Below, piece after piece: positions 21,637 to 63,548 of a DNA stretch of 64,000 nt; position 1 is the first letter of the stretch, and each line of letters starts with the position of its first letter. Source of the stretch: Patescibacteria group bacterium (lineage in GTDB: Bacteria > Patescibacteriota > Patescibacteriia > 2-02-FULL-49-11); NCBI GenBank assembly GCA_041645165.1, contig JBAZQN010000001.1, forward strand, positions 117,971 through 181,970, read 5' to 3'. A program made the position numbers and the translations under genes. The notes under the pieces were generated by a model that was given only the letters and a program-made list of their open reading frames with translations, did not search any database and was not told the DNA's origin.

Positions 21637-22887
21637 GTGAATAAAAATTGTTTATTCCCTATAGTATATAGAGAATTTATTTCCATGAAGTTAATTTATT
21701 TTGCCAATATACGCCTGCCTACGGAAAAAGCGTATGGCATACAGATAATGAAAATGTGTGATGCTTTTTCACACGCAGGCGCGGAAGTGACGCTGGTGAT
21801 CCCCACGCGCGCGAATCCCGGATTTAACGGTGTCAATCCTTTTGACTATTATGGGGTGAAACGATCTTTTGCGTTACAACGCATTAAAACGTTTGATCCT
21901 TGGTGGCTGATACGATTGCCGCAAGGCATCTATATTAAGGTTCAAGGATTTCTTTTTATATTCAAATTATATTTATGGTTCTTTATTCACAATATATATT
22001 CAAAATACGATGTCGCGTATACCCGTGATGAGTATCTCTTGCCGCTCCTGCATAAATTTTTTCCGCGTGTGGTGTGGGAAGCGCACAATTTACCAAGTCA
22101 TCCGCAGCGCTATATCAAAGCATGGCGAAAATGCCGGTACATTGTCGCAATTACCAAGGGGCTTAAGGACGCATTAGTGAAACAAGGCGTACACCCTGAT
22201 CACATAATGGTGGCGCCGGATGGAGTAGACCTTGAAAAGTTCACCCGGTCATCCGACCGGGTGCCCAGTCGAATGACTGGGCAAGTTCAACCCTTCGACT
22301 CGGCTCAGGGTGACAGGGATGAGTTACGGAGGCAATTAGGTTTACCGACAGACAAAAAGATTATCCTTTATAGCGGCCATTTATATGAACGGAAAGGCGC
22401 GCAAATGCTCGCTGATGCGATCCGTTTGCTCGATGATCGCTTTCTTGCGGTAATTGTGGGCGGCACACCTCATGATATCGAGAGATTTGCGATACGCAAT
22501 ATGGATACATTCCGTATAAAAATTGTCGGTTATCAGCCCCATGCGCTCATCCCGCGTTATCTCAATGCGGCAGACGCGCTGGTATTGCCGAATTCTGCAA
22601 AAAACGATGATGCAAAATTATTCACTTCACCCATGAAATTATTCGAATACATGACCGCGCACGCCCCTCTTATTGCGTCCCGCGTGCCTGCGCTGCAGGA
22701 AATATTAAATGACCATAATGCAGTTTTTTTTAATCCGGATGATCCGCGCGATCTCGCCAATGTTATTCAAAAGGTAATTGATAACCCAGATCTCTATAAT
22801 GCATATTGGCAGCAGGCGAATAAAGACGTCATGCAGTATACATGGCTTAAGCGGGCACAGCGTATCTTCACTACAATCATCAAATAA
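21637..22887 (+). CDS. Glycosyltransferase GT4 carrying an in-frame palindromic insertion (start probably Met 21685)
   Basis: GT4 C-domain (NSAKNDDAKLFTSPMKLFEYMTAHAPLIAS); a 25-aa low-complexity insert FTRSSDRVPSRMTGQVQPFDSAQGDRDEL is encoded by the double-hairpin element at 22240-22286. Confidence 0.65.
   Translation: MNKNCLFPIVYREFISMKLIYFANIRLPTEKAYGIQIMKMCDAFSHAGAEVTLVIPTRANPGFNGVNPFDYYGVKRSFALQRIKTFDPWWLIRLPQGIYIKVQGFLFIFKLYLWFFIHNIYSKYDVAYTRDEYLLPLLHKFFPRVVWEAHNLPSHPQRYIKAWRKCRYIVAITKGLKDALVKQGVHPDHIMVAPDGVDLEKFTRSSDRVPSRMTGQVQPFDSAQGDRDELRRQLGLPTDKKIILYSGHLYERKGAQMLADAIRLLDDRFLAVIVGGTPHDIERFAIRNMDTFRIKIVGYQPHALIPRYLNAADALVLPNSAKNDDAKLFTSPMKLFEYMTAHAPLIASRVPALQEILNDHNAVFFNPDDPRDLANVIQKVIDNPDLYNAYWQQANKDVMQYTWLKRAQRIFTTIIK
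22240..22286 (+). repeat. Palindromic in-frame insertion element, copy A (cacccggtcatccgaccgggtg + gcccagtcgaatgactgggc)
   Basis: Two adjacent perfect hairpins inside the coding sequence; homologous to the copy in gltX (63259-63306) with compensatory stem changes. Confidence 0.7.
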
Positions 22888-22892
22888 ATAAT

Positions 22893-23492
22893 ATGTTCAA
22901 TAAATTTCGAGATTTACTAGCCAAAAAACCATGGATTTTCAATGTGCTAAGAAATATTATTGAATTTAATTTTACCAAAGAAAAGGAGCTTATCCGAAAG
23001 GCCTTTGGCGATAGTGCGGGGAAGACGATACTCGATATTGGCTGCGGCACTGGCACGTTTGCGCCACTTTTTGTGGATGATATCTATTATGGCATAGATC
23101 TATCGCCAGATTATATTCAGCATGCAAAAAAAAATAAAAAGGGTACTTTCAAAATTATGAATGCAACCCAATTGGAATTTCCTGATGAGAAGTTCGATTA
23201 CGCGCTCATCATGGCCGTTTTACACCATTGTGACTCTGAAACGGTTCAGCAAATTTTACGAGAAACACGTCGTGTATTAAAAACTCAAGGGAAAGCGCTA
23301 GTGATTGAGGTCAGCCATAGCACTGAAATGGACAACTTTATTTTTCGTTTCTTGAGGAAATTTGATAAAGGAGATTATATCCGCTCTCCACAAGAATACG
23401 CGCAACTCATTTTAAATAATTTTAAAATTGACAAGGAAATGACTTTTCGCAGCGGATTATATGTCTATCACAGCTTCGAGGTGTATAAATAG
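22893..23492 (+). CDS. Class I SAM-dependent methyltransferase
   Basis: ILDIGCGTGTF motif I; DYALIMAVLHH. Confidence 0.65.
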   Translation: MFNKFRDLLAKKPWIFNVLRNIIEFNFTKEKELIRKAFGDSAGKTILDIGCGTGTFAPLFVDDIYYGIDLSPDYIQHAKKNKKGTFKIMNATQLEFPDEKFDYALIMAVLHHCDSETVQQILRETRRVLKTQGKALVIEVSHSTEMDNFIFRFLRKFDKGDYIRSPQEYAQLILNNFKIDKEMTFRSGLYVYHSFEVYK

Positions 23493-23497
23493 GGAAT

Positions 23498-24235
23498 ATG
23501 GCATCAGTGACTCCTCTCACGTCTGAATTATCGATAGTGATCCTCTGTTACCGAGCAGGAGACGCAGTCCGTGATTTCATTTCACGTACCATCGTAATCC
23601 TTGCAGAAGGCGGTATTCCAGACTATGAGCTTGTATTGGTAGGCAATTTTATGGAAGGCTCTGGAGACCGCACTCCACGCATCGTAGCAGAATTAGCGGC
23701 GACCTATCCGAAAGTGGTATATCTGGCAGAACCAAAACAGGGAATGATGGGATGGGATATGAGAAAAGGTTTGGAGAAAGCGAGAGGCGCCTATCTTGCG
23801 GTCATTGACGGTGATGGGCAAATGCCGATTGCGGATTTAGTAAAAGTATATACAAAAATTAAAAATGAGCGACTTGATATGGTTAAAACATATCGTCTGC
23901 AAAGAGGAGATAGTATTTTAAGAAAAACAATTTCTTTTATTTATAATTTATTTTTTCATGCGCTTTTCCCTGGGTTAAATGTACGGGATATCAACGCGAA
24001 ACCGAAAATATTCACTCGTGCGGTCTATGAACGCATGTGGCTGGAATCAAATGACTGGTTTATTGACGCAGAAATTATGATCGAAGCACGGCGTCTGCAC
24101 TTGCGTATAGGAGAAATACCCACAGTTTTTTTGGGACTTACGGGACGCAGGTCATTTGTGAAAATGAGAGCGATAAATGAATTTTTAATAAATTTAATAC
24201 GCTATAGGATAAGAGAATTTCGGCGTACAAAATAA
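23498..24235 (+). CDS. GT2 polyprenyl-phosphate glycosyltransferase (DPM1/GtrB-like)
   Basis: N-terminal GT2 fold; DGDGQ motif; C-terminal amphipathic tail. Confidence 0.65.
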   Translation: MASVTPLTSELSIVILCYRAGDAVRDFISRTIVILAEGGIPDYELVLVGNFMEGSGDRTPRIVAELAATYPKVVYLAEPKQGMMGWDMRKGLEKARGAYLAVIDGDGQMPIADLVKVYTKIKNERLDMVKTYRLQRGDSILRKTISFIYNLFFHALFPGLNVRDINAKPKIFTRAVYERMWLESNDWFIDAEIMIEARRLHLRIGEIPTVFLGLTGRRSFVKMRAINEFLINLIRYRIREFRRTK

Positions 24236-24237
24236 GA

Positions 24238-26061
24238 ATGAAATATAGTATGCAGGATACATTTATGCCGCAAATAAAAAAAGTGTGCATATTTTTATAT
24301 ACTAGTTGGTTGTCTCGTTTTTTTAAACCCCTCTTTATTTTTTGTCGGGCGCACGCGGGCGCATTGTTCCTCTCTTTATTCATCGGAATGATAACGATAG
24401 CGCCACAGCTTATTTTCCAGTCAACGCTAGGGGAGCGCTACCAAGGTATTTATTTGGGCGGTACCGATAATGAAGACTATTATGCGGGAAGGGTGCGGGA
24501 AGCGTTCGACGGGCACTATGCTATAGGCAACGCATTTCTTTATGAAGGCCGTGACGCACTTTTTTTGCAGCCACCTTTGGGTGAATTATTATTTTTACCC
24601 CTTGGCGCTCTGTTCTCTTTTAATCCAGTGACGACTCTCTTCTGGGGCTCGCGTTTTGTTTTTCCCTTATTATTAACGTTCATTATATATTATTTCATTT
24701 ATCTGCTTTTTTCGTCTAAGTTATTAGCGCTTGCCGTAAGCAGCAGTATCGTGCTTGCTTCGCAATTTGTATATTTTCCTAAACAATTATTTAATTTAAT
24801 TCCCACGCAGTTTGGTGCTTTTTCTATTGATAGTTTTCTTACCTATTCCCGCCCTGTGCTTCCCCAAACAAGCACGCTATTTTTTTTCCTATTTTTATTA
24901 TTATTTTTCTTGCTCCTTAACAAGCGTACGATGGTATGGCATTGTTATCCGATAGGCATACTGTATGGGTTGAGTATCTATCTCTATCTTTATAACTGGA
25001 TTTTCCTTACTGTTTTTTGCATTATTATTATAGGGTTTTACGTCTGGTGGAAAGATAAGGAAATGGTAAAGGCATTGATGCGATTTTTTTTCTGCGGGAT
25101 AATTATCACCCTGCCCTTCTGGTTTGTCATGTTAAAAAATGCGAATTCACCATTTTGGGTTGAGACGGCGGCACGATATAATATATATGGGTCCCATGAC
25201 TTCGTATTCAGCAAACTGTTGGCTATAAGCCTTATAGGATGGCTTGCCGCGAATTACCGGAAATTGAAAGATCCTGCAGTCCACCTGATACTCGCCCTTA
25301 TATTAAGCGGATTTGTGGTAATTAATCAGCAAATCATCACTGGGAGAGTTTTATTTTACGGGCATTTTCATTGGTATTTCAACGTTCCAATTTTTATTAT
25401 AGCCATGCTCTATTTAGCGCATATGCTTAGTGTACGGGTAGCTCCTCTGCTGAATAAAATAATGGTGATAATTATTCTTAGCGTGAGCATCGGTTCCGCC
25501 ACTATGATTCAAGCGAAAAGCCTGGAAACGAGAGCCCAAGGCTATATGGCGCAGCAGGATTGGGGTGGCGTATATCTGTGGCTGGATAAAAATCTCCCTT
25601 TGGAGTCGGTTATCTTAAGCAATAATAGAAGTTTTTCAAATGCGATTCCCACCTATACTAAACATTATCCCTATGACGGGATATATGCGCATTTGTTTTT
25701 GGCTGATCCGGAACGATTAAAGTATAATATATTTATTTATCTTTGGTTGCGCGGCCTGAAAGCGGACAAAGCGGGCGAATATTTTTCACACACACCGCAT
25801 GAAATCATTGGATACCTTGGTGCGGCAAGGGTGAGGCGCGTCTATGGATGCACCGTCTGCGTGCCCGCAGATATTTTACACGGCTTTGCGGATGAATATG
25901 TCCGTTTTATCGAGCAACGACGCTATGAGCAACTTGCGCAATATAAACTAGACATATTTGCATGGGATAGGCGCGAGGATGGCGCAGTGCCGGAATATTT
26001 ACTCACCAGGTTTACATTCGTTACAAGGGTGAATAATTTTGACATTTATCGCATTCATTAA
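24238..26061 (+). CDS. Large polytopic membrane protein, probable GT-C-type glycosyltransferase partner of the upstream GtrB-like enzyme
   Basis: 607 aa, more than 10 TM; translationally coupled to the GT2 gene (3-nt gap). Confidence 0.45.
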   Translation: MKYSMQDTFMPQIKKVCIFLYTSWLSRFFKPLFIFCRAHAGALFLSLFIGMITIAPQLIFQSTLGERYQGIYLGGTDNEDYYAGRVREAFDGHYAIGNAFLYEGRDALFLQPPLGELLFLPLGALFSFNPVTTLFWGSRFVFPLLLTFIIYYFIYLLFSSKLLALAVSSSIVLASQFVYFPKQLFNLIPTQFGAFSIDSFLTYSRPVLPQTSTLFFFLFLLLFFLLLNKRTMVWHCYPIGILYGLSIYLYLYNWIFLTVFCIIIIGFYVWWKDKEMVKALMRFFFCGIIITLPFWFVMLKNANSPFWVETAARYNIYGSHDFVFSKLLAISLIGWLAANYRKLKDPAVHLILALILSGFVVINQQIITGRVLFYGHFHWYFNVPIFIIAMLYLAHMLSVRVAPLLNKIMVIIILSVSIGSATMIQAKSLETRAQGYMAQQDWGGVYLWLDKNLPLESVILSNNRSFSNAIPTYTKHYPYDGIYAHLFLADPERLKYNIFIYLWLRGLKADKAGEYFSHTPHEIIGYLGAARVRRVYGCTVCVPADILHGFADEYVRFIEQRRYEQLAQYKLDIFAWDRREDGAVPEYLLTRFTFVTRVNNFDIYRIH

Positions 26062-26083
26062 CTATATAACCTAAATACCTATT

Positions 26084-27667
26084 ATGACTCAAGATGCGCA
26101 TCAGAAAAAAACAGCGATTATCATAGGCGCAGGCCCAGCAGGCTTAACTGTTGCATGGGAATTGCTGACAAGAACTGATATAACTCCCATAATCCTTGAA
26201 AAAAGCAATATGATCGGCGGATTAGCGCGTTCTATTGATTATAAAGGTAACCGTATGGATATCGGGCCGCATCGTTTTTTTTCAAAGTCCGATCGTGTCA
26301 TGCGCTGGTGGCTTGGGCATTTGCCGTTACAGCATGTGGACAATATGGAGTTTATCCGATCTTATCAAACGAAACTGGGCATCACGAATCAAAATCAGCG
26401 CCTTGATCCCGAGACAACTGATTTAGTTATGCTTTTGCGCAATCGGAAGACGAGAATATATTTTTTAATGGATCTGTTCCCTTATCCGATTGCGTTAAAT
26501 ATGGTTATGCTTCTAAGGCTCGGTTTTTATAAAATTTTGCGCATCGGCATCAGTTATGTATACAGTATATTATTTCCCATAAAACCAATGAAAAATTTGG
26601 AGGATTTTTATATTAACCGTTTTGGAAAGGAACTCTATTTAACTTTTTTTAAATCATATACAGAGAAATTATGGGGATTATCATGCCGCGAGATCAGTGC
26701 GGAGTGGGGAGCGCAGCGCGTAAAAGGCCTTTCGGTGGGGAATGCGCTGAAAGATTTTATTATGAAACTGATACATAAAAATAAAAGCATAGACCAAAAA
26801 AAGACTGAAACGTCGCTCATTGAATGGTTTTTGTATCCTAAGCGCGGTGCGGGACAAATGTGGGAAACAGTAGCGGATAAAATACGGCAAAGGGGAGGTG
26901 AGATTATCATGAATTTTAATGTCGATAAAATTTATCAAAAGGAGCATACTGTAATAGCAATTGGTGGTCATAGTCTCATTGAAGGACAAAAAAAAGAATG
27001 GCAAGGAGATTACTTTTTTTCGACAATGCCGGTGCAAGAATTGACAAAATCATTTATGGGAGAAGTCGATCAGGAGGTAAGAGAAATCAGTGATGGGCTG
27101 CGTTATCGTGATATAATTCTTATTGGTTTATTATTGAAACGCCTATTATTAACTGATAAAGAATATCCCCACGAACTAATACGTGACAATTGGTTATATA
27201 TTCAGGAACCCAATGTGCAGGTGGCGAGGATACAAATATGCAATAATATGAGTCCTTATCTCGTGGCAGCCCCGGGGCTCGTATGGATAGGGGCAGAATA
27301 TTTTTGTCAGGTTGGCGACAATATGTGGGAGCGCGATGATGCTTCTTTAGTGCAAATGGCGCAAAAGGAATTGGAAAAAATTGGGATAATCGCAGAAAGA
27401 GATACAGTTGACGGGGTGGTCATACGCCAGGAGAAGGCGTACCCGGTTTATTTCGGCGCATATCAGCAGTTTGAAACGGTGAGGAAATTTTATGACCAAT
27501 TCGACAACCTATTTTTGCTGGGCCGCAATGGCATGCATAAATATAATAATCAAGATCACTCTATGCTCACCGCCATGGTAGCAGTGGACAATATCATTCA
27601 TCATCGCCAAAACAAGGAAAATATTTGGGCGGTGAATACGGAGAAAGAGTATCATGAGGAAAAGTAA
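26084..27667 (+). CDS. FAD/NAD(P)-binding oxidoreductase (amine-oxidase / UDP-galactopyranose-mutase superfamily)
   Basis: Dinucleotide-binding [17 protein letters not shown] at N-terminus; C-terminal [11 protein letters not shown] flavoprotein motif. Confidence 0.55.
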
Positions 27668-30031: not shown

Positions 30032-30268
30032 GCCTTGTCCGCCATTTGGCGCGATATGGCGTGTAAATTTTATAATAAGGCTAAAATAGCCCAAGAGGTT
30101 GACAAATTACAGGAATCTGGTAGTCTGTATGGTTCTTTACCCCGTTACAAGAACGTTATGGTTCTAAGACCTTAAATGAACGGCAATTCAGCCCGAAGGG
30201 GGATTCGGGTGAATACTGTAGAGGCCTTAAGCCAATTGTAACGGGGTTTACCGGATAACCGCATATTT

Positions 30269-31201: not shown

Positions 31202-31210
31202 ATTGATAAT

Positions 31211-36552: not shown

Positions 36553-36555
36553 AGG

Positions 36556-44577: not shown

Positions 44578-46422
44578 TTAATCCGTGATACTGGGATCGC
44601 CTGGTCCCACTGAATAGATGGCGTCGCCGTTCAATACATAGATTCGCCGCGCTGCTTCATCCGGGTAAAGTCCCCGCAATTCAGTAAACAGCGGGCTCGT
44701 ATATTGGGCAACTAATGAGCCGTCTTTTTTTAATACGACAACTACGCGGCGTTGGGGTTGGTCGAGGAGATAGAGATAGGGAGAATCTTCCTTAGTCGCG
44801 ATTGCTTTCACGTTTCCCAAAGGAGGCTGGAGAGGCCTTAAGGCAAATGGCACCCGTTTGCCTTTTTCAAGCCGTATTATGCTGTGGTCGGTGAATGTCA
44901 CGTACATAGAGCCGTCAATGGCAAAAGTAGTCGCTTGCGATAAGTCTATAGAATCATCTTCTGACCAAGGCGACCATAAATTATACCCCTGATCTGTGCG
45001 TTCAAAGCGGTAAATGGAGCGTGTGCGCGCATCAAGCAAATAGATGTGGTCAAGGTATGTCGCATACGCAATTGGCACCATTGACGCGCGAGGCAGTATA
45101 AGAGGGTACAATTGGAAGGTGCGGTGTTCGGAATCAAAATTTAACACGCCGAGCGGGTTTTCAGTGAGCACCATCACAGTGCCCGGGGTTGAAGCGATGA
45201 TATCTACGGGCTTGCCCGCACCATCAGGAAGTTCTGTCATCACGACAATGCGCCTTTCTTTCCCGTCAAATTCATAAATGGCGCCTTCCGCGCGGTTCAC
45301 CGTATAAAGTTTTCCCTGCTTGAGCGCGAGCCCCATGAGGTCAAACGTATGCGTTTCGCGGAATGATTTTTCCATGGAGACCACTGGTGTGGGATTTGCA
45401 ATAATAGAAAGCTTATTGATCAATGCAGCGCGCTGTGCAAGCCTTGTTCTTAAGTTTTGAATAGTGGATGCTTGAGTGTCTGAAAGATACTGGGGCGCCG
45501 CATTGAGGAGTGCGAGTGTGGCGTCAATGAGCTCAAGCGCATCTTCTTCCTTTTTATCCTTCAGCAGCGACTCTATCTGCGATTCGCGCCGGACGGTTTC
45601 TGCAATTATGCGTTCCACATTTTTTGACCCCACGGAGACAAATATGATACGCAGTGAGACAAGCATTAAGAGCGCGATGACTGCTATAGCGATGCGTTTC
45701 CGGTGGGAGCTTTGCCGTAATAATGCGATACCTCCCAATATGCTTTTTTTAATCGTGGTTAAAATCGCGACCCAGTTTTTTCTTGTTTTGGGCAATGGAA
45801 GAGATGAGATTTTGTTGCGCAGGTGCAAGGCTCTGTCCTTAATGCTTTTTTTTTGGATAAGTCTGATAATAAATGCAGTACCCAGTGTGTCAATAATTTT
45901 ATTAATTTCTTTTTTATTCCCTTCTTTAAGCTGCTGGGCAAACCGCGTAAGATCGGACTTTCCAGATTCTTTTAATGTGATGAGAATCGCGCCATGTTGG
46001 TGCGCGCCCGCCACAAATTCAGTAAATAATTTTTTTCGCCCTACCGAATATTCTGATTGGCATACTTCAATAATGTTTCCTTGTGACAAAAGATACGCGT
46101 AGCATTCTCCGCCCGAAGTGATAGCAAAGGAGTCTTTATTGTAGGCGAGTGCGCATACATTTTCTGTATATGATTTCGTGTCCTTGCTCAATTCGTTTAC
46201 CCTGCTACCTGCATGCTCAAGAGCGCTCTCTAGCGATCCGCGGTTCGCAAAAAAATGTATTGAGAGATGTTTAAAAACTTCATCTCCGTATGACGAATGG
46301 CTTAAGGCTACGAGAAATGAAGCTGATGTCTCTCCCGGCCGCAGCCCTTCACGTTGTGACATTAAAATTCCGCCATTATCGGCGATATTGTGTGATATGC
46401 AAAATTGGATACCTTTGGGCAT
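44578..46422 (-). CDS. Membrane-anchored protein: N-terminal cytoplasmic domain, single TM, large extracytoplasmic beta-rich domain
   Basis: Central TM IAIAVIALLMLVSLRIIFVSV; the start codon at 46420-46422 immediately abuts the 37-bp inverted repeat, so the track N-terminus MALDVDILGM is repeat-derived and probably not translated. Confidence 0.45.
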   Translation of the reverse strand: MPKGIQFCISHNIADNGGILMSQREGLRPGETSASFLVALSHSSYGDEVFKHLSIHFFANRGSLESALEHAGSRVNELSKDTKSYTENVCALAYNKDSFAITSGGECYAYLLSQGNIIEVCQSEYSVGRKKLFTEFVAGAHQHGAILITLKESGKSDLTRFAQQLKEGNKKEINKIIDTLGTAFIIRLIQKKSIKDRALHLRNKISSLPLPKTRKNWVAILTTIKKSILGGIALLRQSSHRKRIAIAVIALLMLVSLRIIFVSVGSKNVERIIAETVRRESQIESLLKDKKEEDALELIDATLALLNAAPQYLSDTQASTIQNLRTRLAQRAALINKLSIIANPTPVVSMEKSFRETHTFDLMGLALKQGKLYTVNRAEGAIYEFDGKERRIVVMTELPDGAGKPVDIIASTPGTVMVLTENPLGVLNFDSEHRTFQLYPLILPRASMVPIAYATYLDHIYLLDARTRSIYRFERTDQGYNLWSPWSEDDSIDLSQATTFAIDGSMYVTFTDHSIIRLEKGKRVPFALRPLQPPLGNVKAIATKEDSPYLYLLDQPQRRVVVVLKKDGSLVAQYTSPLFTELRGLYPDEAARRIYVLNGDAIYSVGPGDPSITD

Positions 46423-46456
46423 ACCCAGTATATCAACATCCAACGCCAAACGTGGC
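46420..46456 (-). repeat. 37-bp perfect inverted repeat, right copy
   Basis: Exact reverse complement of 14707-14743. Confidence 0.9.
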
Positions 46457-46946
46457 GAGGATAGTAGTATTACGTAGTACCGTTGCGACCCTGGAGTATT
46501 GATTTATCATAATGGACAGAATAAGCGTTTGGCGATCGGTGAGGGAGGCTTTGATAGAATCTTGAAATGCATTTATACCATTATTTCATGTTTTATTCAT
46601 TCTCTGTACTCTCATTTCCGCCTCCCTCTTGGATGTTGTATAACTGGGCATAATTTAGAACGTTCGACTCTATCATAATTATGTTTTTTTTGCAAGAGGG
46701 TGGGGGATGAACATTTTTAGTGTTCATGCCCACTTGCGCTTTTTTCTGCGTATGATAGGATATGAAACTTCCTTAAGGGCGCTTAAAAAAATAACCTTTC
46801 CAATATAATCCTCATTTTATTGCGGCATTAGGCTTATTAACTATAGTACCGCATCAAAGCGGTGAATATGTTATTTTTTTACGGCGCCTAAGATATTTGA
46901 GATATCTCACAGAGTTATCCACAGCTACTCTCTTTAATTTGCTATT

Positions 46947-48689: not shown

Positions 48690-49741
48690 CAAATGTCTAG
48701 ATTTGTAGCGTCGGAGCTTGTCTCCGACTCACGGGTGGCAGACATCCCAGTCATTCGACGGGACAGGAGCTGCTACGCTACCGTGAAACGCGTAATTCCT
48801 GTTTAATATCATTTTCTGTGGATAACTGGAGGAAAACTGAAGGTTTTTGGGTGAATTTAGCTTAATTTTGAAATGATAATAAAAATAATATTAAATATTA
48901 TGCAATAAAATGGCTAACATTAAAAGAAAATACTTGATAATAAAGCTAATATTTAGATTGACAGGGCACCTTGTTTTAGGATAAGATTGGATAACCAAAA
49001 AACAACATAAGAAACCAAATAAAAGGCAGAGATAACGATCCCGTGCTCACTTAATCGGAAACAGACGCAGATTCCGCCAGCGGGCGGATACGCAGATATA
49101 TGCAGATTTTCTTAAAGTGCATGGGACTATTTACGGTATCAGGACAATTTATAGGGCGCAGAATGGAATCCGACTATAACGCTTTATGCGCGGATCAAAC
49201 GCGAACACACGCGAGAGATCACGCCAATAGACGCGAAAGTTAGATTTCGTTCTGCGCTCTTTATATTGCGCAGATATAAGCAGATGATACGCAGATAGTC
49301 GCAGATATGTCATGAGTAAGACTATAAAAATAAAAAAAAGAAATTAACATTTCATTTCAATATCAGCGTTGATCGGCGTTTAATCCGCGTTGATCAGCGA
49401 AATGCGTAACATGCATTTGTATTCTTCTCTGTGATCCGGGTTGGTCTGCGCCCCCCGCCCAAACTTTGCCAGATTCAGCAGGCAAATCTGCTGGTGGCAA
49501 AACTTGGGCGGGGTCAGATTCCCCAGCCCGGATCAAAGGGAGGAATAAACCGGTCGACATCCAAACTGATCAATGATCTTTGGATCTTTGAACAGGAGGA
49601 TTGGATTCCATGTGGCGTTACGAGAGGGGGCCCTACCCAATAATGGGCACATAATTATACTCTGGTAACACCATGGCCCAGAACATCACTCCCCGCAAAT
49701 TTTCGTTTAACGAAACTTAAGCGGGGGACTCCAGAAAGGCG

Positions 49742-50341: not shown

Positions 50342-50350
50342 TCAACGTCG

Positions 50351-54858: not shown

Positions 54859-54903
54859 ATAGGCATTACTTCCTCCACGTGTGGGGAAGTTCCAATTTAA
54901 TTT

Positions 54904-55383: not shown

Positions 55384-55653
55384 AGATTGCAGGTAACATA
55401 TTTGCACGTTACCGTTAATGCCCACTTATAGTCCTCGCCGCTCGGAATGCACAATTTTTTTGCGGACGCGATCTCGCGGCCATGACGCTTATGCCCGTCT
55501 GACACGGGCATAAGTCCTCGAAAAACTGACATTCCTTCACGTCGAGGTGAAGGCAGTGAGTAGTTACACATTTACCCCCTTATTTAGGGGGTAATTTTGT
55601 ACTATCAGATCTATTGCATAATCTGCGCTGAGAAGGATATAATTATCTCTAGT

Positions 55654-57738: not shown

Positions 57739-57756
57739 TATTATACGACACATCAT

Positions 57757-59070
57757 ATGATAGATATTAATTTCATCCGTGAACATCCCGATAAGGTTCG
57801 TTGGGCGTTAGAGATTAAAAAGATCAGCCTCGATATTGATGAATTTTTGCATATTGATAAAAAACGAAATGCAGCACTGCGCGAACTGGAAGAATTGCAG
57901 AGAAAACGGAATGAAATAGCTGCAAGCGGGAGAACAGGCAACTTGAATCAAAGAGAAGAAGGCAAGCTGATCAAACAAAAGTTAGGGGAGCAGGAAAAGA
58001 GATTTGAGACACTTGATGAAATATACGAAAATTTCATGGTGCAGATGCCCACCATTCCCGCAGCCGATACACCCATTGGCAATGATGAGAGGGGGAATGT
58101 CGAGGTAAAGAAATGGGGGGAGCCTTCGCAATTCAGCTTCACACCCAAAGACCATGTGCAAATCGGTCGCGATCTTGATCTCCTTGATTTGGAAAAAGGT
58201 GTAAAGGTGAGCGGTTATCGCGGATATTATGTGAAAAATGAAGCGGTTATGCTCCAAATGGGCGTGATGATGTACGCTTTGCAAAAGGCAATTCAGAAGG
58301 GTTTCAAACCAATGATTCCACCCACCTTAGTAAATGAATTCGTGCTTTTTGGCAGCGGATACTTCAAGGGAAAAACTTATAATCCTGATACCGATGAAAT
58401 TTATAAAATTGATAATAACGAGAAAGAGGCGAATGGCGCGGTGAAAAAAGAAAATAAATTTTTAGTGGGAACTGCAGAGCCTTCGCTCCTTGCATATTAT
58501 GCAGATGATATTCTTAAAGAAAAGGATCTCCCGTTAAAAATATGCGGATTTTCTCAGTGTTATCGGAGTGAGATAGGAAGTTATGGCAAAGACACTAAGG
58601 GCATATATCGCGTTCACGAATTTATGAAAGTAGAATTGGTGTGCATTACGAAAGCAGATGTGGATACTGCAGATAGTCTGCATGAGGAGCTTATAGCATT
58701 TTCACGCGAATTGCATGAAGATTTAGGGCTCCCATACCGGCAACTGCGTATTTGCTCAGGAGACCTCTCTGCGGGCAAGTACAAACAGTTTGACACAGAA
58801 GCATGGATTCCAAGCCGTCAAGCGTATGGAGAGACAGGCTCTGCGTCTAATTTTCTCGATTGGCAATCACGAAGACTTAATGTGCGGTACCGAACGGACG
58901 ATGGCGATATAAAATATGTATATATGCTCAATGATACCGCACTACCTTCACCGAGAATCCTTATCTCAATTCTTGAAAATTATCAGCAGGCTGACGGCAG
59001 CATTAAGGTCCCGGAAGCGCTTTTGCCTTACATGAATGGCATACATACGATACACCGGGGGAGTGTTTAA
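57757..59070 (+). CDS. serS: Seryl-tRNA synthetase
   Basis: N-terminal coiled-coil arm plus class II core (GTAEPSL, RSEIGS, FDTEAW). Confidence 0.85.
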   Translation: MIDINFIREHPDKVRWALEIKKISLDIDEFLHIDKKRNAALRELEELQRKRNEIAASGRTGNLNQREEGKLIKQKLGEQEKRFETLDEIYENFMVQMPTIPAADTPIGNDERGNVEVKKWGEPSQFSFTPKDHVQIGRDLDLLDLEKGVKVSGYRGYYVKNEAVMLQMGVMMYALQKAIQKGFKPMIPPTLVNEFVLFGSGYFKGKTYNPDTDEIYKIDNNEKEANGAVKKENKFLVGTAEPSLLAYYADDILKEKDLPLKICGFSQCYRSEIGSYGKDTKGIYRVHEFMKVELVCITKADVDTADSLHEELIAFSRELHEDLGLPYRQLRICSGDLSAGKYKQFDTEAWIPSRQAYGETGSASNFLDWQSRRLNVRYRTDDGDIKYVYMLNDTALPSPRILISILENYQQADGSIKVPEALLPYMNGIHTIHRGSV

Positions 59071-59140
59071 GCCTTCTCTCAAATACTATTTATAAATGAG
59101 ACTAATATTATCCGACGCTTAACTGCTTGTCTTAAGCAAA

Positions 59141-60001
59141 ATGTTTTTGGGTTTATTCCATCATGCCAATCATTTGCCTGCACGACGCAAAAAAAAAGAT
59201 TATTACGAACATGCGTATAAAAATCCGCACCGTGCAGATCCCAAAAGAGGAATTGACACCAGACTAATTTTTTTATTGTGCGGGGTTTCAATCCTCGTGA
59301 GTATATGTTATTGGCTATTTTTCTCCGGAGCTTTCCGCGTAACCATCATTGATATTTTAAACGCGCAGAGTATTGACCCGCACAATATTGAAGCATTGGT
59401 AAGGCTTGAGCTAGGCAAAAAAAAATTATTTACGATTCCCTACGGCGCAAGCCTTTTTTTTATTGATTCGCAGCGTATTGAACAAGCGATATTGAACGAA
59501 TTTCCTGTTAAAAAGGTTGAAGTCAAACCCTCATTGCCGCATCGTCTCATTATTGATTTGGAAGAACGCATCCCGCGTTATATTGTCAAAACCGCGCAAG
59601 GAGGGGAGCCATTAGCCATTGATGACGAGGGGATAGCCCTTGGGCCTGCGGTATTGGGTGAGCAGTGGCCTTCTTGGGTCATTACCGCGCCGGCATTGTT
59701 GAGCACCACCACAGGCGCTGCAGCGCTTCCTCGCAGTGCGCTTTCATTCCTGAACGCGCTGGAGGCCTCATCTGCGCATATACGCCAGGGCTACCGCATT
59801 CAGGAGGTTGACCTTACTCGCATTCCTTTGCACGATATATCAGTAAAGACATCTGAACAGTGGGTTATCTTAATATCAGATGCCTTTGATACCGATTTGC
59901 AGCTTTTAAACGTCGATAGAGCGCTTGTAGAAATGAAGGATGAAAGAAAGGTTATCCAATACATTGATGTGCGCATACCGACGAAGATATTTTACAAGTG
60001 A
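59141..60001 (+). CDS. FtsQ/DivIB-like cell-division protein (TM + POTRA)
   Basis: Cytoplasmic basic N-terminus, one TM (LIFLLCGVSILVSICYWLFF), POTRA-like beta-alpha-beta region. Confidence 0.45.
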   Translation: MFLGLFHHANHLPARRKKKDYYEHAYKNPHRADPKRGIDTRLIFLLCGVSILVSICYWLFFSGAFRVTIIDILNAQSIDPHNIEALVRLELGKKKLFTIPYGASLFFIDSQRIEQAILNEFPVKKVEVKPSLPHRLIIDLEERIPRYIVKTAQGGEPLAIDDEGIALGPAVLGEQWPSWVITAPALLSTTTGAAALPRSALSFLNALEASSAHIRQGYRIQEVDLTRIPLHDISVKTSEQWVILISDAFDTDLQLLNVDRALVEMKDERKVIQYIDVRIPTKIFYK

Positions 60002-60136
60002 CTTAAGATTGCGCAGATAAGTGCTTGGGGCGGATAACATATAATGTCCGACTCTAGATATCTAACGTCCGCATATTCCCCTCTTAACAAAAGAAGGCCC
60101 GTGAAGAGGCCTTCTTAATGTTTGACGTATAGCCAT

Positions 60137-60487
60137 TTATTCTGGAAATATACCACCCGTCGAAAAATAAATGGTTATATTACCCATTGAAAAGCTATTT
60201 ACTACTGTTGACGTCGCCGATCCAGTAATAATACTACCGCCCACTATATCCTCTCCCGCAATTATGCTATTTTGCCCGGTGATAATGCGTTGGCGTGTTA
60301 TTATTGTCGCATTGGATGTGGCGCGAGGTCTTATGATAATGGATGATCTGCTTCTTACGTTGCAGATATATGTTGGATCATCTGCTACGTTATCAGTGAT
60401 ATTGCACGTTGCTACTGCTAAGACAGGTGATGCAAATAATAGGGAGATGCCGATGCCGCTAATAATACCAAAGAAAAGTTTTTTCAT
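60137..60487 (-). CDS. Small secreted protein (start at internal Met, MKKLFFGI...)
   Basis: Signal peptide with AXA-like site; the track ORF extends upstream to 60571 but its N-terminal extension is not hydrophobic. Confidence 0.4.
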   Translation of the reverse strand: MKKLFFGIISGIGISLLFASPVLAVATCNITDNVADDPTYICNVRSRSSIIIRPRATSNATIITRQRIITGQNSIIAGEDIVGGSIITGSATSTVVNSFSMGNITIYFSTGGIFPE

Positions 60488-60604
60488 ATGGTTGGTCTGC
60501 GCCTTTTTATTTTTATAATTTGTTTTCGACCTTTCTCCCCTCCCCTCGTTATTATCAATAGAATAAATCATCTGATCTGTAACAAAAATAAATACAGAAA
60601 TCTA

Positions 60605-61879
60605 TTACGGAATATAATCCAGCGGGTTAACAGGTATTCCCTGTTGGCGGATTTCAAAATGCAGATGTGGTCCTGTAGTGAGTCTCCCTGCGCCGGGGGT
60701 GCCCGGAGTGCCACCTGACAAGCCTATTACCTGCCCTTGCGTGACAAATTCATCACTGCGCACATAAATTTTCGATAAATGGCCGTACACCGTCGCATAC
60801 CCGTCATTATGGATTAGCATTATGTAGGAGTAGCCCATGCCCGCGTCTTTTGCAATGCCCACATAACCGCTGGCTGCGGCGTGCACGGATGTTTTGTAGG
60901 CCGCCTTAATATCAATGGCGGGATGTTCAAAAATATAGCGATAAGGGTAGTCAGGGTCATGGAAATATGCGGTAATCACATTAGGCGGAACCGGCCACGC
61001 AAAAATAGTATTGCCAAGCGCTTGCAATTTTTTCAAACGTTCGCCTTTCTGCATCTCTGCGCGCAGTTTTTTTTCTATAGTGCTCACCTCTGACTCGATC
61101 GCGTTTTGTTCGCGTTTTGCGCTTTCCAGCAAGGACGTATATTTTGTCTCAGAACGGCGGGTATCGACAAGCAACTGAGCTTTTACAGAACGCTGCGATC
61201 CCAGCTGGAGCTGCTGTTCATCAAGCTGTGATTTTAACTGCACGAGTTGCTCTTGTTTTGCCGTTAATTCTGCATGTTTCAATTCCGCTTCTTTTTTCAC
61301 GCGGTCATATTCATTGACTGTAGCGGCAATGGAGGACTGCAGTTGCTCAATGTTTTTTATATCATGGTAGTATTCGGAAAGATTGTCATGTGTCAGGAGC
61401 GCAAACATCTCCTGCATCCCCTCTCGCTGCTTGAGATAACGGAGGTTCGCCGCAAGCTCAGCGCGTTTCAAGAGGAGTGATCGCTCATATTGGGCAATTA
61501 ATTCCTGCGTTTGCTCAATTTCCATTTGCGTCTCGCCGATTTCCTCTTCGGTAAGTTTTATGGAAAGTTCGAGCCGCTGTACCTGGTCATTGATAATAGC
61601 AATTTGATTTGACAGGGAGGCAGCTTGCGATTGGCGAAGTCGGATACTCTGCGCATACGTGGAAATTTCACGTTTCAGGTGGTCTATGGATTCTTTTTTC
61701 TGATCTATGCTCGTTTGCAATGATTGCACATTGCCATATTGCGCATACACATAAATAAGACCCGGCAATAATAAAAATACGGCGATGATTGCGATCGCCA
61801 GTATCTGTAATCTATTTTTTTTATTAAAACGATGAGCTGCGCTGTCTCTCATGCCGTTATTGTAGCAAATTTTGCTCAT
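60605..61879 (-). CDS. M23-family metalloendopeptidase with N-terminal coiled-coil (EnvC-like)
   Basis: HxxxD/HLH zinc motif context GYATVYGHL ... GPHLHFEIR; long heptad-rich N-terminal half; N-terminal TM. Confidence 0.8.
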   Translation of the reverse strand: MSKICYNNGMRDSAAHRFNKKNRLQILAIAIIAVFLLLPGLIYVYAQYGNVQSLQTSIDQKKESIDHLKREISTYAQSIRLRQSQAASLSNQIAIINDQVQRLELSIKLTEEEIGETQMEIEQTQELIAQYERSLLLKRAELAANLRYLKQREGMQEMFALLTHDNLSEYYHDIKNIEQLQSSIAATVNEYDRVKKEAELKHAELTAKQEQLVQLKSQLDEQQLQLGSQRSVKAQLLVDTRRSETKYTSLLESAKREQNAIESEVSTIEKKLRAEMQKGERLKKLQALGNTIFAWPVPPNVITAYFHDPDYPYRYIFEHPAIDIKAAYKTSVHAAASGYVGIAKDAGMGYSYIMLIHNDGYATVYGHLSKIYVRSDEFVTQGQVIGLSGGTPGTPGAGRLTTGPHLHFEIRQQGIPVNPLDYIP

Positions 61880-61937
61880 CTTGTAAACCCCGTCATATCA
61901 AATTTTAGCCTTTCTTAGACGACATGAGATCTCCAGT

Positions 61938-63548
61938 TTATGCGTTGAGAGTTTGAAGCGATTCAATTGCGTTTTCAATTCTTTTAATCGTTTCATCCTT
62001 ACCAAGAATGTTCATTAATTCAAAAGGGCTGGGACTTTGCTCTTTGCCGCTTAAGGCCACGCGAAGCGGCCAAAGAATCTGGCTGTTGGTCCTTTGTGTA
62101 TCTTTTATCCACGCCTTCAATGTGGTATCAAAGTCAGGAGCTTTAAACATATTTTCCGGCATCGTGTGGAAGTACTCCTTGGTTTCAATTAGGTGGGCTA
62201 TGGCCGTATCGCGCTGTTCCCCTTTCCCTATGAGCAGTGATGCGTCGTAGAAGGGGCGGTCAAAAAGATATTCAAGATCTTGCCCGATGTCTTTGAGCAC
62301 AACGAGCCTGGTCTGAAGCAGTGCAGCCACAGATTGCATATAGTCATCGCGAATAATGCGCTTATCGAGGGTAAGCCACTCCCCTTTTTCAAGCGGGGTG
62401 ATAAGGCCTGATGCGGTTAAATGCGGGATGGCTCTCGAGGCGAGATCTTCAAGGGGCATCAGTTTGATATAGTGCTTATTTATCCAGTTTAATTTTTCAT
62501 AATTGAATACGGCAGGAGATTTTTGGATGCCTTCGAGGCTGAACAGTGCGAGCATTTCTTCTTTCGTAAAAATCTCTTGCTCGTTTCCCTTACCAGGATT
62601 CCAGCCAAGTAAAAGGGTGAAATTTAGAAGCGCATGGGGCAGGTATCCGGCATCCCGCATTGCCAGTACCGAAATTGCGCCATGGCGCTTGCTGAGTTTA
62701 GTTCTGTCGGGCGCTAAGATTAAAGGGAGATGGCCGAATTGGGGAATTTCCCAGCCTAATCCTTGGTAGAGCAATATATGTTTTGGTAGCGAGGGCAGCC
62801 AATCATCGCCCCGCAATACATGCGTGATGCCCATAAGGTGATCGTCAACGACGTTGGCGAGATGATAAGTGGGGTATTGGTCAGATTTCAGAAGCACTTG
62901 ATCGTCCACAAGGCGTAAATCAAATGTGACATCACCGTGAATTAAATCATTTACTGTTATCGTTCCTTTCTCTGGTATTTTAAGCCGAATGACGTATGGC
63001 GCGTTTGACGCCAACTGCTTTGCAATTTCATCCGATGATAATGCGGCGCAATGTTTGTCATACATGGACGGTTGTTTATTCGCTTCTTGCTCTTTCCTCA
63101 TTTTTTCCAGCCTTTGAGGTGTGCAAAAACACCGGTATGCAACTCCCTTCTCTAGAAGTATTTCAGCGTACTTACGATACTCCTCTATTCTTTGCGATTG
63201 AAAATACGGCCCTCCTTCTCCTTTTTCTGCAATTAAGTCATCCATATTGGAATTTGGGATTTGCCCGATCATACGATCGGGCATCCGGTCGGATGACCGG
63301 ATGAATTTAGGATTTTTCATTATTGGTCCTTCATCCCAATCAAGCCCTGCCCATGCAAGCCCTTCTAAGATTGATTTTACGCTTTCAGGTTTGTAGCGCG
63401 TTTGATCTGTATCTTCAATGCGGACAATAAATTTGCCCTTGCGCTGCCGCGCGAAGAGCCAATTAAATAGCGCCACGCGGAGCGTGCCAATGTGCATGTC
63501 TCCTGTAGGCGATGGGGCAACTCTTACACAAATTTGATTAATATTCAT
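61938..63548 (-). CDS. gltX: Glutamyl-tRNA synthetase with an in-frame palindromic-element insertion after the WDEGP motif
   Basis: HIGH-type PSPTGDMHIGT, KMSKS-like KLSKRHG; about 36 extra residues IMKNPKFIRSSDRMPDRMIGQIPNSNMDDLIAEKGEG between DEGP and GGPYFQSQR. Confidence 0.85.
   Translation of the reverse strand: MNINQICVRVAPSPTGDMHIGTLRVALFNWLFARQRKGKFIVRIEDTDQTRYKPESVKSILEGLAWAGLDWDEGPIMKNPKFIRSSDRMPDRMIGQIPNSNMDDLIAEKGEGGPYFQSQRIEEYRKYAEILLEKGVAYRCFCTPQRLEKMRKEQEANKQPSMYDKHCAALSSDEIAKQLASNAPYVIRLKIPEKGTITVNDLIHGDVTFDLRLVDDQVLLKSDQYPTYHLANVVDDHLMGITHVLRGDDWLPSLPKHILLYQGLGWEIPQFGHLPLILAPDRTKLSKRHGAISVLAMRDAGYLPHALLNFTLLLGWNPGKGNEQEIFTKEEMLALFSLEGIQKSPAVFNYEKLNWINKHYIKLMPLEDLASRAIPHLTASGLITPLEKGEWLTLDKRIIRDDYMQSVAALLQTRLVVLKDIGQDLEYLFDRPFYDASLLIGKGEQRDTAIAHLIETKEYFHTMPENMFKAPDFDTTLKAWIKDTQRTNSQILWPLRVALSGKEQSPSPFELMNILGKDETIKRIENAIESLQTLNA
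63259..63306 (-). repeat. Palindromic in-frame insertion element, copy B (sense strand: catccggtcatccgaccggatg + gcccgatcgtatgatcgggc)
   Basis: Same double-hairpin architecture, orientation and reading frame (RSSDRxPxRMxGQ) as copy A at 22240-22286; stem differences are compensatory. Confidence 0.7.

Follow-up and report, generated by a model that had tools for sequence, protein, structure and literature searches.

Within the 64-kb stretch of DNA that was analysed (the window), which comes from the MAG of an ultrasmall bacterium of the Patescibacteria (CPR), two protein-coding genes of essential type, one for a GT4-family glycosyltransferase and one for glutamate--tRNA ligase (GluRS), each carry one copy of a double-hairpin (DH) element. 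The features of the locus are given below, with scores from a covariance model (CM) built on the family.

21685..22887, + strand: gene for the GT4-family glycosyltransferase (P0121, 400 aa), host gene 1
22204..22349, + strand: mosaic (co-conversion-like) tract around copy 1, from comparison with the filled orthologue L167
22243..22281, + strand: DH element copy 1, in the GT4 ORF (CM 77.4 bits, E 7e-20)
22289..22323, + strand: second extra GT4 segment, ..PFDSAQGDRDE.., from sequence comparison
48747..48762, + strand: solo single hairpin CCAGTC-ATTC-GACGGG with one mismatch (CM 12.3 bits, E 0.12, weak)
61938..63548, - strand: gltX, GluRS gene (P0001, 536 aa), host gene 2
63245..63263, - strand: heptamer-repeat target sequence (CAAATCCCAAATTCCAAT) on the 3' side of copy 2, read from the sequence
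63264..63302, - strand: DH element copy 2, in the gltX ORF (CM 76.1 bits, E 2e-19)

Copy 1, a 39-nt insertion of the form A-CCCGGTC-ATCC-GACCGGG-TG-CCCAGTC-GAAT-GACTGGG, is translated in the glycosyltransferase as TRSSDRVPSRMTG, and copy 2, likewise of 39 nt (A-TCCGGTC-ATCC-GACCGGA-TG-CCCGATC-GTAT-GATCGGG), is translated in GluRS as (F)IRSSDRMPDRMIG. The two are 83% identical across 48 nt and share the 16-mer CCGGTCATCCGACCGG, for which 0.03 occurrences are expected by chance; longer degenerate patterns of the element were found in 0 of 100 shuffles. Each forms a pair of neighbouring 8-bp hairpins whose loops are 4 nt long (z = -3.6 and -4.4). A first-pass annotation had proposed a palindromic element common to the GT4 gene and gltX, and both copies were found where it placed them, with their similarity confirmed. 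Its claim that stem substitutions are matched on the other arm also held, as all three stem differences between the copies (C/G versus T/A in hairpin 1; AG/CT versus GA/TC in hairpin 2) are compensated, and both copies do lie in sense orientation and in the same frame (..RSSDR(V/M)P.RM(T/I)GQ). The size of the inserted unit is revised from about 50 nt to 38-39 nt (13 aa). No third full copy was detected in the 64 kb with the CM. The hairpin at 48747..48762 is possibly a half-element; solo hairpins of this type also occur in pseudo-tRNAs of three other loci (L079, L080 and L154).

Copy 1 is situated in the inter-domain linker of the glycosyltransferase, after GVDLEKF, and copy 2 in the hypervariable loop of GluRS between WDEGP and GGPYFQSQR; GluRS residues 78-109 are without counterpart in the solved structure 4GRI. 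An extra GluRS segment of about 36 aa had been located correctly, but the element does not account for all of it, giving only 13 of about 32 residues. The remaining residues form a hypervariable loop specific to Patescibacteria (CPR), partly encoded by heptamer repeats. AAATTC flanks copy 2 on its 5' side (63303-63308), and removal of the 39 nt restores AAATTCC-AAATCCC-AAATTCC, comparable to (AAATTCC)n at the empty GT4 site.

Close orthologues of both host proteins lack the peptide. The GT4 orthologues P0123, P0124 and P0126 read ...KF|QIPNSKFQ..., and the GluRS orthologue P0003 (76% identity) has NPKS-QIPN against NPKF[IRSSDRMPDRMIG]QIPN in the window. At the DNA level, the empty GT4 orthologue L168 reads AAA TTC|CAA ATT, so that the GT4 insert is exactly 39 nt, placed between TTC and CAA in an (AAATTCC)n array, and comparison of empty and filled alleles reveals no flanking duplication. 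Protein comparison gives the same net gain for GluRS. The second extra GT4 segment (22289..22323) stands in place of SKFQ of the empty orthologues, is also present in L167 and can form a small hairpin, ACCCT..AGGGT. Around copy 1, a mosaic tract matches the filled orthologue L167 at 97% identity (4 differences in about 146 nt) versus 74% in the rest of the gene (binomial P ~1e-13), and the window gene overall is nearer to the empty allele (78%) than to L167. Such identity to the more distant, filled orthologue indicates lateral gene conversion. Spread with co-conversion of flanks, as expected of a homing cassette, is thereby seen in one case, the GT4 tract.

The family search, which fetched 40 and 111 stretches, yielded more than 110 further copies, with about 116 distinct contexts containing the full two-hairpin element. 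All true copies derive from Patescibacteria MAGs or unclassified metagenome contigs, one MAG being binned as Bdellovibrionales. The general layout is XY-[7-bp stem, loop ATYC]-X'Y'-[7-bp stem, loop GRAT]-XY, where XY stands for CA, CG or TG and its complement occupies the middle position; the DH as a whole is dyad-symmetric. Conservation falls on the loops ATYC/GRAT and on GTC/GAC, with no invariant tag beyond the hairpins. The window copies are solo members of a family of 38-40-nt DH DNA elements widespread in Patescibacteria. No Rfam family reaches threshold for the element and no description of it was found in the searched literature; the family is apparently undescribed.

Covariation in the stems is overwhelming, in agreement with the earlier proposal that secondary structure is under selection. 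Pairing is kept in 98.5% of stem cells, both sides have changed in 9 of the 16 pairs, and there are 179 compensatory cells, a level that 0 of 500 shuffles reach. A single long hairpin fold was rejected, its covariation being at shuffle level; selection is evident only on the two separate hairpins. Among stem mismatches, 13 are A.C versus 7 G.T, so the sense strand shows no surplus of G.U pairs, and selection therefore appears to act on DNA rather than on sense RNA.

Long ORFs hold 41 of the 116 contexts (35%), and the reading frame is kept by 32 of the 33 copies in long ORFs. With respect to the host ORF, 38 copies are sense versus 3 antisense. Copies in ORFs are translated as 13 aa in one of two open frames, RSSDRVP.. 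or HPVIRPGAPS.. (22 versus 16), and their hosts are housekeeping genes, including those for aminoacyl-tRNA synthetases, SecA, RpoC, FtsZ and UvrA/C. These data refute the explanation of the shared peptide as an ancient or convergent protein-level insertion, or as gene conversion confined to the GT4/gltX pair. Such an origin would fit the common frame and similar peptides of the two window copies, but is contradicted by the more than 100 copies in unrelated genes and intergenic DNA, the about equal use of two frames, conservation at the level of nucleotide pairing and the absence of the insert from close orthologues.

A functional RNA element (a processing or stability signal, protein-binding motif or tiny intron) selected in tRNA operon transcripts and mRNAs is a further explanation, which we consider very improbable. 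The lack of G.U excess on the sense strand, loops that are not of stable RNA tetraloop types and the failure of all Rfam families to reach threshold argue against it. Frame conservation would be needless if the element were spliced out. Strong covariation and the nearly constant sense orientation are what such an element would show, although the orientation bias can stem from strand bias of the A-rich target. The element is also present in transcribed tRNA-GIY-YIG units (see below), at times just upstream of the GIY-YIG start codon; however, it occurs either up- or downstream of that gene, and at anticodon-loop sites both orientations are found.

The DH lies at a target that resembles a T-loop, TTC(R)^(C)AAAT(Y)C. 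For about 40% of copies, the site is T-loop-like (TTCR^AAT) and belongs to a displaced tRNA fragment that adjoins an intact tRNA. Insertions into real tRNA T-loops add 40 nt net and show a CR dinucleotide at both junctions; the junction reading that bears on this gave G..G in 5 of 11 copies versus 0 of 79 for A..G. Both CG..CG..CG and TG..CA..TG versions of the DH were observed. Some insertion sites fit the TTCRAA consensus badly, such as GAGG-CG-AGT in the anticodon arm of L156. The architecture at tRNA genes comprises direct repeats of 16-40+ nt with periods of 71-115 nt and tandem arrays. The 71-115-nt units, which combine the DH with a short trailer and a 3' piece of a tRNA, can form tandem arrays, look like internal-deletion derivatives and have the DH end in common with the GIY-YIG cassettes.

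Master copies adjoin a gene for an 85-95-aa stand-alone GIY-YIG protein (UPF0213-type), beside a tRNA gene. At the loci read in detail, this tRNA gene is partly duplicated: a displaced, non-functional tRNA copy holds the DH in its T-loop, anticodon loop or anticodon-arm region, and an intact tRNA is regenerated alongside. The small CPR proteins consist of the catalytic domain only, and the structures nearest to them are PDB 1YWL and 1ZG2 (UPF0213). Adjacency of a GIY-YIG catalytic domain gene (PF01541, E 4e-13) holds for the family and not for the window copies, as neither a GIY-YIG gene nor a tRNA was found within the 64-kb window; being solo, the window copies are tied to the nuclease through family membership only. 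At loci ascertained through the element, a DH is found no more than 250 nt away from 12 of the 16 GIY-YIG ORFs. In an independent sample chosen by GIY-YIG homology only, all eight proteins (nine loci) have a DH at 0-100 nt, with no other DH in the 5 kb and a tRNA adjacent in all nine loci. When 1,569 ORFs taken from 108 loci were clustered, GIY-YIG came out as the top recurrent neighbour.

The DH could instead be a selfish hairpin repeat that is autonomous in trans (REP/REPIN or PATE type), mobilised in folded, single-stranded form by an HUH/Y1 enzyme (RAYT or IS200/IS605-like) or another host-encoded enzyme. Proximity to GIY-YIG genes would then be incidental because both prefer the tRNA T-loop sequence, and attraction to tRNA genes could have arisen separately for DHs and for GIY-YIG genes. 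The 18-nt palindromic units with conserved loops and selection that looks DNA-level, the specific target with no long target-site duplication as in IS200/IS605, and the lack of a nearby GIY-YIG gene for about 90% of copies are all in keeping with this explanation. It is nevertheless judged unlikely, as the spacing of 0-100 nt in eight of eight independent GIY-YIG proteins is far tighter than shared attraction to tRNAs predicts, and the 10 annotated recurrent gene clusters near the 108 loci, headed by GIY-YIG, include no transposase. In addition, residence of 35% of copies in ORFs is unlike REPs, and the mosaic tract suggests spread by recombination rather than by a transposase.

A GIY-YIG homing-type cassette probably underlies the DH, which would be its cis part or footprint, and the best explanation overall, which we favour with moderate confidence, is a family spread by such cassettes at T-loop-like targets, with solo copies in ORFs. 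The GIY-YIG nuclease, whose activity is predicted, would cut TTCR^AA-type sites with a 2-nt stagger, as the junction dinucleotide and target consensus suggest. The break would be repaired by copying a DH-bearing template, i.e. homing with co-conversion of flanks, and the inserted DH would interrupt the site. Some ORFs contain sites that resemble the target by chance, (AAATTCC)n arrays for example; microhomologies there would be limited to TTC and CAAAT, and hence only the DH would be copied in. Among the points against homing, the regenerated intact tRNA keeps the presumed target, so self-immunity is not accounted for; tandem arrays may be a consequence of this. The gain of 39 nt in ORFs versus 40 nt in T-loops also requires an ad hoc account, namely microhomology register plus frame selection. 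More tentatively, and with somewhat less than even confidence, we suggest that the DH, the small UPF0213-type GIY-YIG gene and the carried tRNA piece may together make up a kind of prokaryotic mobile element that has so far gone unrecognised, with a minimal GIY-YIG nuclease as its driving enzyme in place of a transposase or recombinase. It would target the universally conserved tRNA T-loop, regenerate the tRNA upon insertion and shed 38-nt DHs in frame into essential protein genes across CPR.

CPR genomes are tiny and are thought to be poor in mobile DNA. The DH is present in core genes of many CPR lineages and is translated there, and is thus a source of protein-loop variation. It explains the odd recurring peptides ..RSSDRVPxRMTGQ.. 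and ..HPVIRPGAPSxDGA.. as well as partial tRNA duplicates in CPR annotations, and is probably behind fragmented assemblies around small GIY-YIG genes. It is also a clean example of covariation that reflects hairpins in DNA and not the structure of an RNA. Should the GIY-YIG link prove causal, it would represent a new way of DNA movement, would supply a natural nuclease whose target is short and defined, and would give a first function to the widespread, domain-only UPF0213/YhbQ-like GIY-YIG family.

The DH is a selfish element resembling Rickettsia palindromic elements (RPEs) in behaviour, and is not an RPE. The likeness drawn in the first-pass annotation stands as regards further copies, empty orthologues and frame conservation, and does not extend to family membership (length, two hairpins, other phylum). 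The target specificity for T-loop-like sequence and the tight linkage to GIY-YIG nuclease genes and duplicated tRNA genes are additions to that reading. RPEs are about 100-150 bp, with one long stem, and are confined to Rickettsia (PMC10969869). Both are selfish palindromic repeats found in frame in unrelated housekeeping genes of reduced-genome bacteria, present or absent among orthologues and translated as an extra peptide at tolerated positions, and both also occur in intergenic DNA and beside or inside RNA genes. The DH differs in its 38-40 nt, two independent 7-9-bp hairpins with conserved tetraloops, occurrence in Patescibacteria, defined T-loop-like target and link to a GIY-YIG gene; it is set apart from the RPE consensus by description. 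To our knowledge, no enzyme partner is known for RPEs.

REP/REPIN-RAYT and IS200/IS605-derived systems are similar in having short palindromes with conserved non-stem nucleotides, inverted doublets, DNA-hairpin selection and a single-copy enzyme gene flanked by the repeat (PMC3733652). REPs, however, are extragenic, with a GTAG or CGTC tag and a Y1 transposase partner (PMC3733652), whereas 35% of DHs are intragenic, no GTAG/CGTC-like tag is present and the partner is a GIY-YIG nuclease. As regards MITEs, the DH is dyad-symmetric, a 2-nt CR dinucleotide flanks it in T-loop sites, the GT4 site has no duplication and no DDE transposase parent was found.

The CPR DH resembles the double-hairpin elements (DHEs) and repetitive hairpin elements of fungal and sponge mitochondria (PMC10085805; PMC2800124; Paquin et al., 2000, as cited there). 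These are short and G+C-rich, fold into two hairpins side by side and are scattered through compact, A+T-rich genomes, where they lie between genes, within rRNA genes and now and then in protein genes. They are kept in transcripts, as frame conservation suggests for the CPR DH, and are without flanking duplications. Horizontal transfer is suggested there by copies that are nearly identical in different species, as for the CPR DH. DHEs are organellar, so that sequence similarity is not expected and homology is not implied, and the passages that describe them report no defined target, nuclease-gene linkage or link to tRNA duplication.

Phage T4 has its gene for the GIY-YIG homing enzyme SegB among clustered tRNA genes, and cutting by SegB gives 3' overhangs of 2 nt (PMC2330249). 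Seg proteins exceed 200 aa and have DNA-binding domains, unlike the 85-95-aa, catalytic-domain-only CPR proteins, and Seg systems are without a hairpin element, regenerated target-gene copy or solo ORF derivatives. The likeness lies in a GIY-YIG gene beside tRNA genes, in 2-nt 3' overhangs that match the 2-nt junction dinucleotide, and in double-strand-break repair that co-converts flanking markers, matching the GT4 mosaic tract. GIY-YIG genes in CPR rRNA genes lie within non-intron insertions (PMC11270868).

The window contains two occurrences of the 16-mer CCGGTCATCCGACCGG, one at 22245 (+) and one at 63300 (-); chance would give 0.03. Extended two-hairpin patterns found the same two sites only, with matches in 0 of 100 shuffles, and a repeat finder aligned the copies over 48 nt (83%). 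In each copy of this double-hairpin element (DH, 38-40 nt), two hairpins form side by side, both with an 8-bp stem and a 4-nt loop (z-scores -3.6 and -4.4). The host genes are:

21685-22887, + strand: GT4 glycosyltransferase (400 aa), host of copy 1
61938-63548, - strand: gltX (encoding GluRS), host of copy 2

These results bear out the two-copy repeat described in the first-pass annotation. Its further statements also hold: every stem difference between the copies is compensated, and both copies are in sense orientation and in one common frame. The whole window matched no Rfam family at gathering thresholds. A known RNA family was also rejected on a permissive Rfam search of the element and one locus with a GIY-YIG gene (a small UPF0213-type nuclease gene), which gave sub-threshold hairpin look-alikes only.

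The GluRS and GT4 of the window have 100% matches among the proteins of a Patescibacteria MAG. When genomes were scanned for the first-hairpin pattern, 40 loci were returned. About 15 of them also carried the second hairpin, and these were all from MAGs of Patescibacteria (CPR) except two contigs of one Bdellovibrionales-binned MAG; the groups included Nealson-, Giovannoni-, Staskawicz-, Uhr- and Saccharibacteria, among others. G+C-rich matches outside CPR showed hairpin 1 only, by chance, and were rejected as copies. A metagenome scan, in which the arms of hairpin 1 were left unconstrained, returned 111 stretches. Pooled, the scans gave 116 distinct contexts with 90 distinct cores, so the further copies that the annotation proposed to look for in other genomes do exist. 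DH is a family restricted to Patescibacteria. Carriage by phages was rejected, as a search of viral_contigs gave no DH match.

The consensus reads tYCR / Y-CCNGTC-ATYC-GACNGG-R / TG / CCCNNTC-GNAT-GANNGGG / CR-AAtYC. Standard pairs make up 98.5% of the stem cells across the 90 cores, 9 of the 16 pairs show two-sided change and 179 cells are compensatory; none of 500 shuffles reached the observed pairing or covariation values, and slid controls were only 23-44% paired. The search left all of hairpin 1 free except its loop-closing pair, while hairpin 2 has two free pairs, which vary. The covariation check thus supports the earlier claim of selection on secondary structure. DH is dyad-symmetric: read on the opposite strand, loop 2 (GRAT) matches loop 1 (ATYC). 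A single long hairpin or perfect palindrome was considered and rejected, because that fold is 85.6% paired versus 84.7% in shuffles and covariation between the hairpins is absent; the conserved structure is two independent hairpins. Core-stem mismatches on the sense strand (A.C 13 versus G.T 7) show no G.U enrichment, which speaks for hairpins in DNA, on either strand, rather than selection on a sense RNA. One copy (L013) has a nested partial duplication of about 20 nt in hairpin 2.

Long ORFs contain DH in 41 of the 116 contexts. Sense copies account for 38 of these, 22 in the frame ..RSSDR(V/M)PxRM(T/I)GQ.. and 16 in ..HPVIRPGAPSxDGA.., and three are antisense; the sense bias may follow merely from the A-rich target being strand-biased. 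Where at least 70 open codons lie on each side, the frame is kept in 32 of 33 copies, which suggests from sequence that DH is translated rather than spliced out. The hosts include SecA, FtsZ, RpoC, UvrA, UvrC, RecQ, PolX, PGK, a POR-type enzyme, CysRS, ArgRS, IleRS, MetRS, GluRS and several GT4s. In-frame copies in such varied protein genes agree with the behaviour, like that of Rickettsia palindromic elements (RPE), which had been proposed for the window copies.

Orthologues without the insert, a comparison that the annotation had suggested, were found for both hosts. GT4 proteins P0123 (70% identity), P0124, P0126 and many more read ..GVD(I/L)AKF/QIPNSKFQIR.., and the window GT4 and P0122 (71%) read F/TRS(S/A)DRVPSRMTG/Q... 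The empty allele L168, GCG AAA TTC/CAA ATT CCA AAT TCC AAA TTC CAA, is an (AAATTCC)n heptamer array; filled alleles have exactly 39 nt extra between TTC and CAA, with target duplication absent. In GluRS, P0003 (76%) has NPKS-QIPN versus NPKF[IRSSDRMPDRMIG]QIPN in the window, and removal of 39 nt from gltX restores AAATTCC-AAATCCC-AAATTCC. The boundary was placed from the comparison of proteins and the heptamer periodicity, because the DNA of the 86%-identical orthologue P0002 has a different loop there, encoded by another heptamer, (GAACAAG)n. The extra GluRS segment noted earlier is therefore in part the 39-nt element; the remainder of the ~32 residues extra to solved structures belongs to a loop hypervariable across CPR GluRS. 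Heptamer arrays are DH landing sites, and are located as follows:

63245-63310, window: heptamer array
2040-2100, L168 (empty GT4 locus): heptamer array
1380-1440, L152 (a locus outside the window): heptamer array
Many GluRS/GT4 homologues: heptamer arrays

Such heptanucleotide tandem repeats in CPR protein loops are translated in all three phases, (AAATTCC)n giving KFQIPNS and (GAACAAG)n giving EQGTRNK, the latter also in a WecG-family ORF (63599-63991). The heptamer type differs between the 86%-identical GluRS orthologues.

Compared across its full length, the window GT4 gene shares 78% identity with the empty L168 and 74% with the filled orthologue L167. Within a tract of ~146 nt around DH (~22204-22349), the window and L167 show 4 differences (97% identity, P ~1e-13). 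Gene conversion, or homing with flank co-conversion, leaves just such a mosaic, which vertical inheritance does not predict; the tract is evidence that DH moved laterally. Directly after DH lies a second extra segment, PFDSAQGDRDE (22289-22323), common to L167 and missing in the empty orthologues; it may represent another small hairpin insertion carried in the same conversion tract.

Other repeats are present in the window. Positions 1-7030 hold a low-GC (34-36%) array, running off the left end, of at least seven small unrelated same-strand genes (PsbP-like, DUF4190, serine hydrolase, SET, GNAT and others). A repeat of ~60-90 nt comes after each gene; it ends in ..AACTTCGCTTAnnCCGATACGTTATAT (GTTRRRY-like) and has inverse partners ..ACATAAC. 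The arrangement resembles an integron-type series of gene cassettes with attC sites; the window contains no integrase. A different MITE-like element of ~125 nt (19733-19857) is bounded by the terminal inverted repeats TAATGTCATTCC.../...GGGAATGACATTA and contains the hairpins TCCTGA..TCAGGA and CCCCGTACCGTGATACGGGG; its flanks, aattccga/tcggaatt, are inverted. A solo hairpin (48747-48762) sits inside a bigger imperfect palindrome, GTAGCGTCGGAGCTTGTCTCCGAC ... GCTGCTACGCTAC (48700-48790), which may be another small structured repeat. Further, a ~240-nt segment is duplicated in inverted orientation (14518-14753 and 46420-46659; 91-100% identity). It takes in the region upstream of two unrelated genes together with their first ten codons (MALDVDILGM), perhaps as a promoter or 5' module common to both:

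14724-15602, + strand: likely sugar-nucleotide reductase/epimerase
44578-46449, - strand: hypothetical protein, 623 aa

About 42 contexts have T-loop-like flanks, (G)GGTTCR...CRAATCC, followed by the 3' strands of the T-stem and acceptor. In the typical order, a tRNA that is intact (often tRNA-fMet) comes first, then a trailer of 20-50 nt, a short 5' remnant of a T-stem, DH and a tRNA 3'-end repeat. This direct repeat spans 16-40+ nt with a period of 71-115 nt. Tandem arrays are present in L026/L125 (74 nt), L123 (110 nt) and L130 (97 nt). A CRISPR or TIGR-like array was rejected for the 74-nt units, which are identical, lack variable spacers and consist of tRNA 3' end plus DH. Interruption of functional tRNAs, as by an intron, was also rejected: ARAGORN recovered few tRNAs after excision, and on inspection DH is mostly not in functional tRNAs, since an intact tRNA lies alongside and DH in a displaced fragment. 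The group I introns published for CPR tRNAs are unrelated to DH. A model of IS91 or rolling-circle capture, with a GTTC target, was rejected too, as many flanks are TCCA, CCCA or ATCA instead. T-loop sites have the dinucleotide CR at both junctions, and columns 8 and 48 covary (G..G in 5 of 11 copies versus A..G in 0 of 79). Pseudo-tRNA-Gln genes carry anticodon-loop insertions in L079 (bottom strand CTTCA^AAGG) and L080, and solo single hairpins occur in D and anticodon loops of pseudo-tRNAs (L154, L079, L080).

Clustering of ORFs from 108 loci gave as top cluster a small GIY-YIG protein (PF01541), found in 15 loci; 12 of 16 such ORFs lie within 250 nt of DH, in loci found via DH. Ascertainment bias was removed by using the GIY-YIG protein as query, whereby 8 homologues on long contigs gave 9 loci. 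With a covariance model (filters off), a full DH lies 0-100 nt from the GIY-YIG gene in 9/9 (54.8-70.2 bits, E 1.1e-13 to 5.4e-18), with no further DH in the same 5 kb at any of them, and a tRNA adjoins the gene in 9/9. Many other homologues lie on contigs <2 kb, as expected of assembly-breaking repeats. The protein is of UPF0213 type; its nearest solved structures, 1YWL and 1ZG2, have no assigned function. Junction reading gave two configurations:

Configuration A (e.g. Gln, Ser): tRNA(1-57)-DH-remnant-GIY-YIG-intact tRNA
Configuration B (e.g. Met, Tyr): intact tRNA-trailer-GIY-YIG-GGTTCG-DH-tRNA 3' fragment

Wherever a locus was read in detail, the tRNA duplicate that carries DH is the non-functional one. 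Flanking and middle dinucleotides follow XY..X'Y'..XY (CG..CG..CG, CA..TG..CA, TG..CA..TG). L163:2094-2479 contains a tandem duplication, with a 221-nt period, of a tRNA-Gly/tRNA-Tyr pair, directly 5' of a GIY-YIG gene and DH. Loci L157 and L158 (2865-5121) are identical across the upstream region, DH, GIY-YIG gene and tRNA-Gln and differ downstream, where L158 has a large serine recombinase and a REP_ORF2-G2P-like gene directly after the tRNA, which points to a separate integrative element that uses the same tRNA site. Neither a GIY-YIG gene nor a tRNA was found within the 64-kb window, and copies 1 and 2 are solo derivatives.

The analysis demonstrated the anatomy of DH, its target consensus, its presence/absence among orthologues, the mosaic tract, and the GIY-YIG and tRNA linkage, with partial tRNA duplication where junctions were read; the mechanism that follows is an inference. 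By analogy with T4 SegB, which cuts in a tRNA cluster with a 2-nt stagger (PMC2330249), the nuclease would cut TTCR^AA-type sites with the same stagger; its putative empty targets are GGTTCGAATCC or TTCAAATCC, and (AAATTCC)n. Break repair would then copy from a DH-bearing template. Full tRNA homology would allow the whole cassette or a deleted mini-unit to be copied and the tRNA regenerated. Look-alike sites in ORFs would offer only the microhomologies TTC and CAAAT, so that DH alone would be copied, and survivors would be only in-frame outcomes in tolerant loops. The net gain is 39 nt at the GT4 ORF site versus 40 nt at T-loop sites. The hairpins might serve in site blocking, enzyme binding, or excision and ligation.

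No prior description of DH or of a GIY-YIG-hairpin-tRNA association was found in the literature searched, whose coverage was incomplete. There is a considerable chance, somewhat short of even, that DH, GIY-YIG gene and carried tRNA piece together represent nuclease-driven mobile elements of a new class. DH resembles RPE in behaviour (PMC10969869) but proved not to be a member, and it likewise fell outside REP/RAYT. In shape it is like the mitochondrial double-hairpin elements (DHE), which are kept in transcripts, as DH probably is, and like it have no flanking duplications (PMC10085805, PMC2800124). Its likely engine is like the free-standing GIY-YIG homing genes (PMC2330249). GIY-YIG genes have also been reported from non-intron insertions of CPR rRNA genes (PMC11270868), and these may represent the same system as DH.
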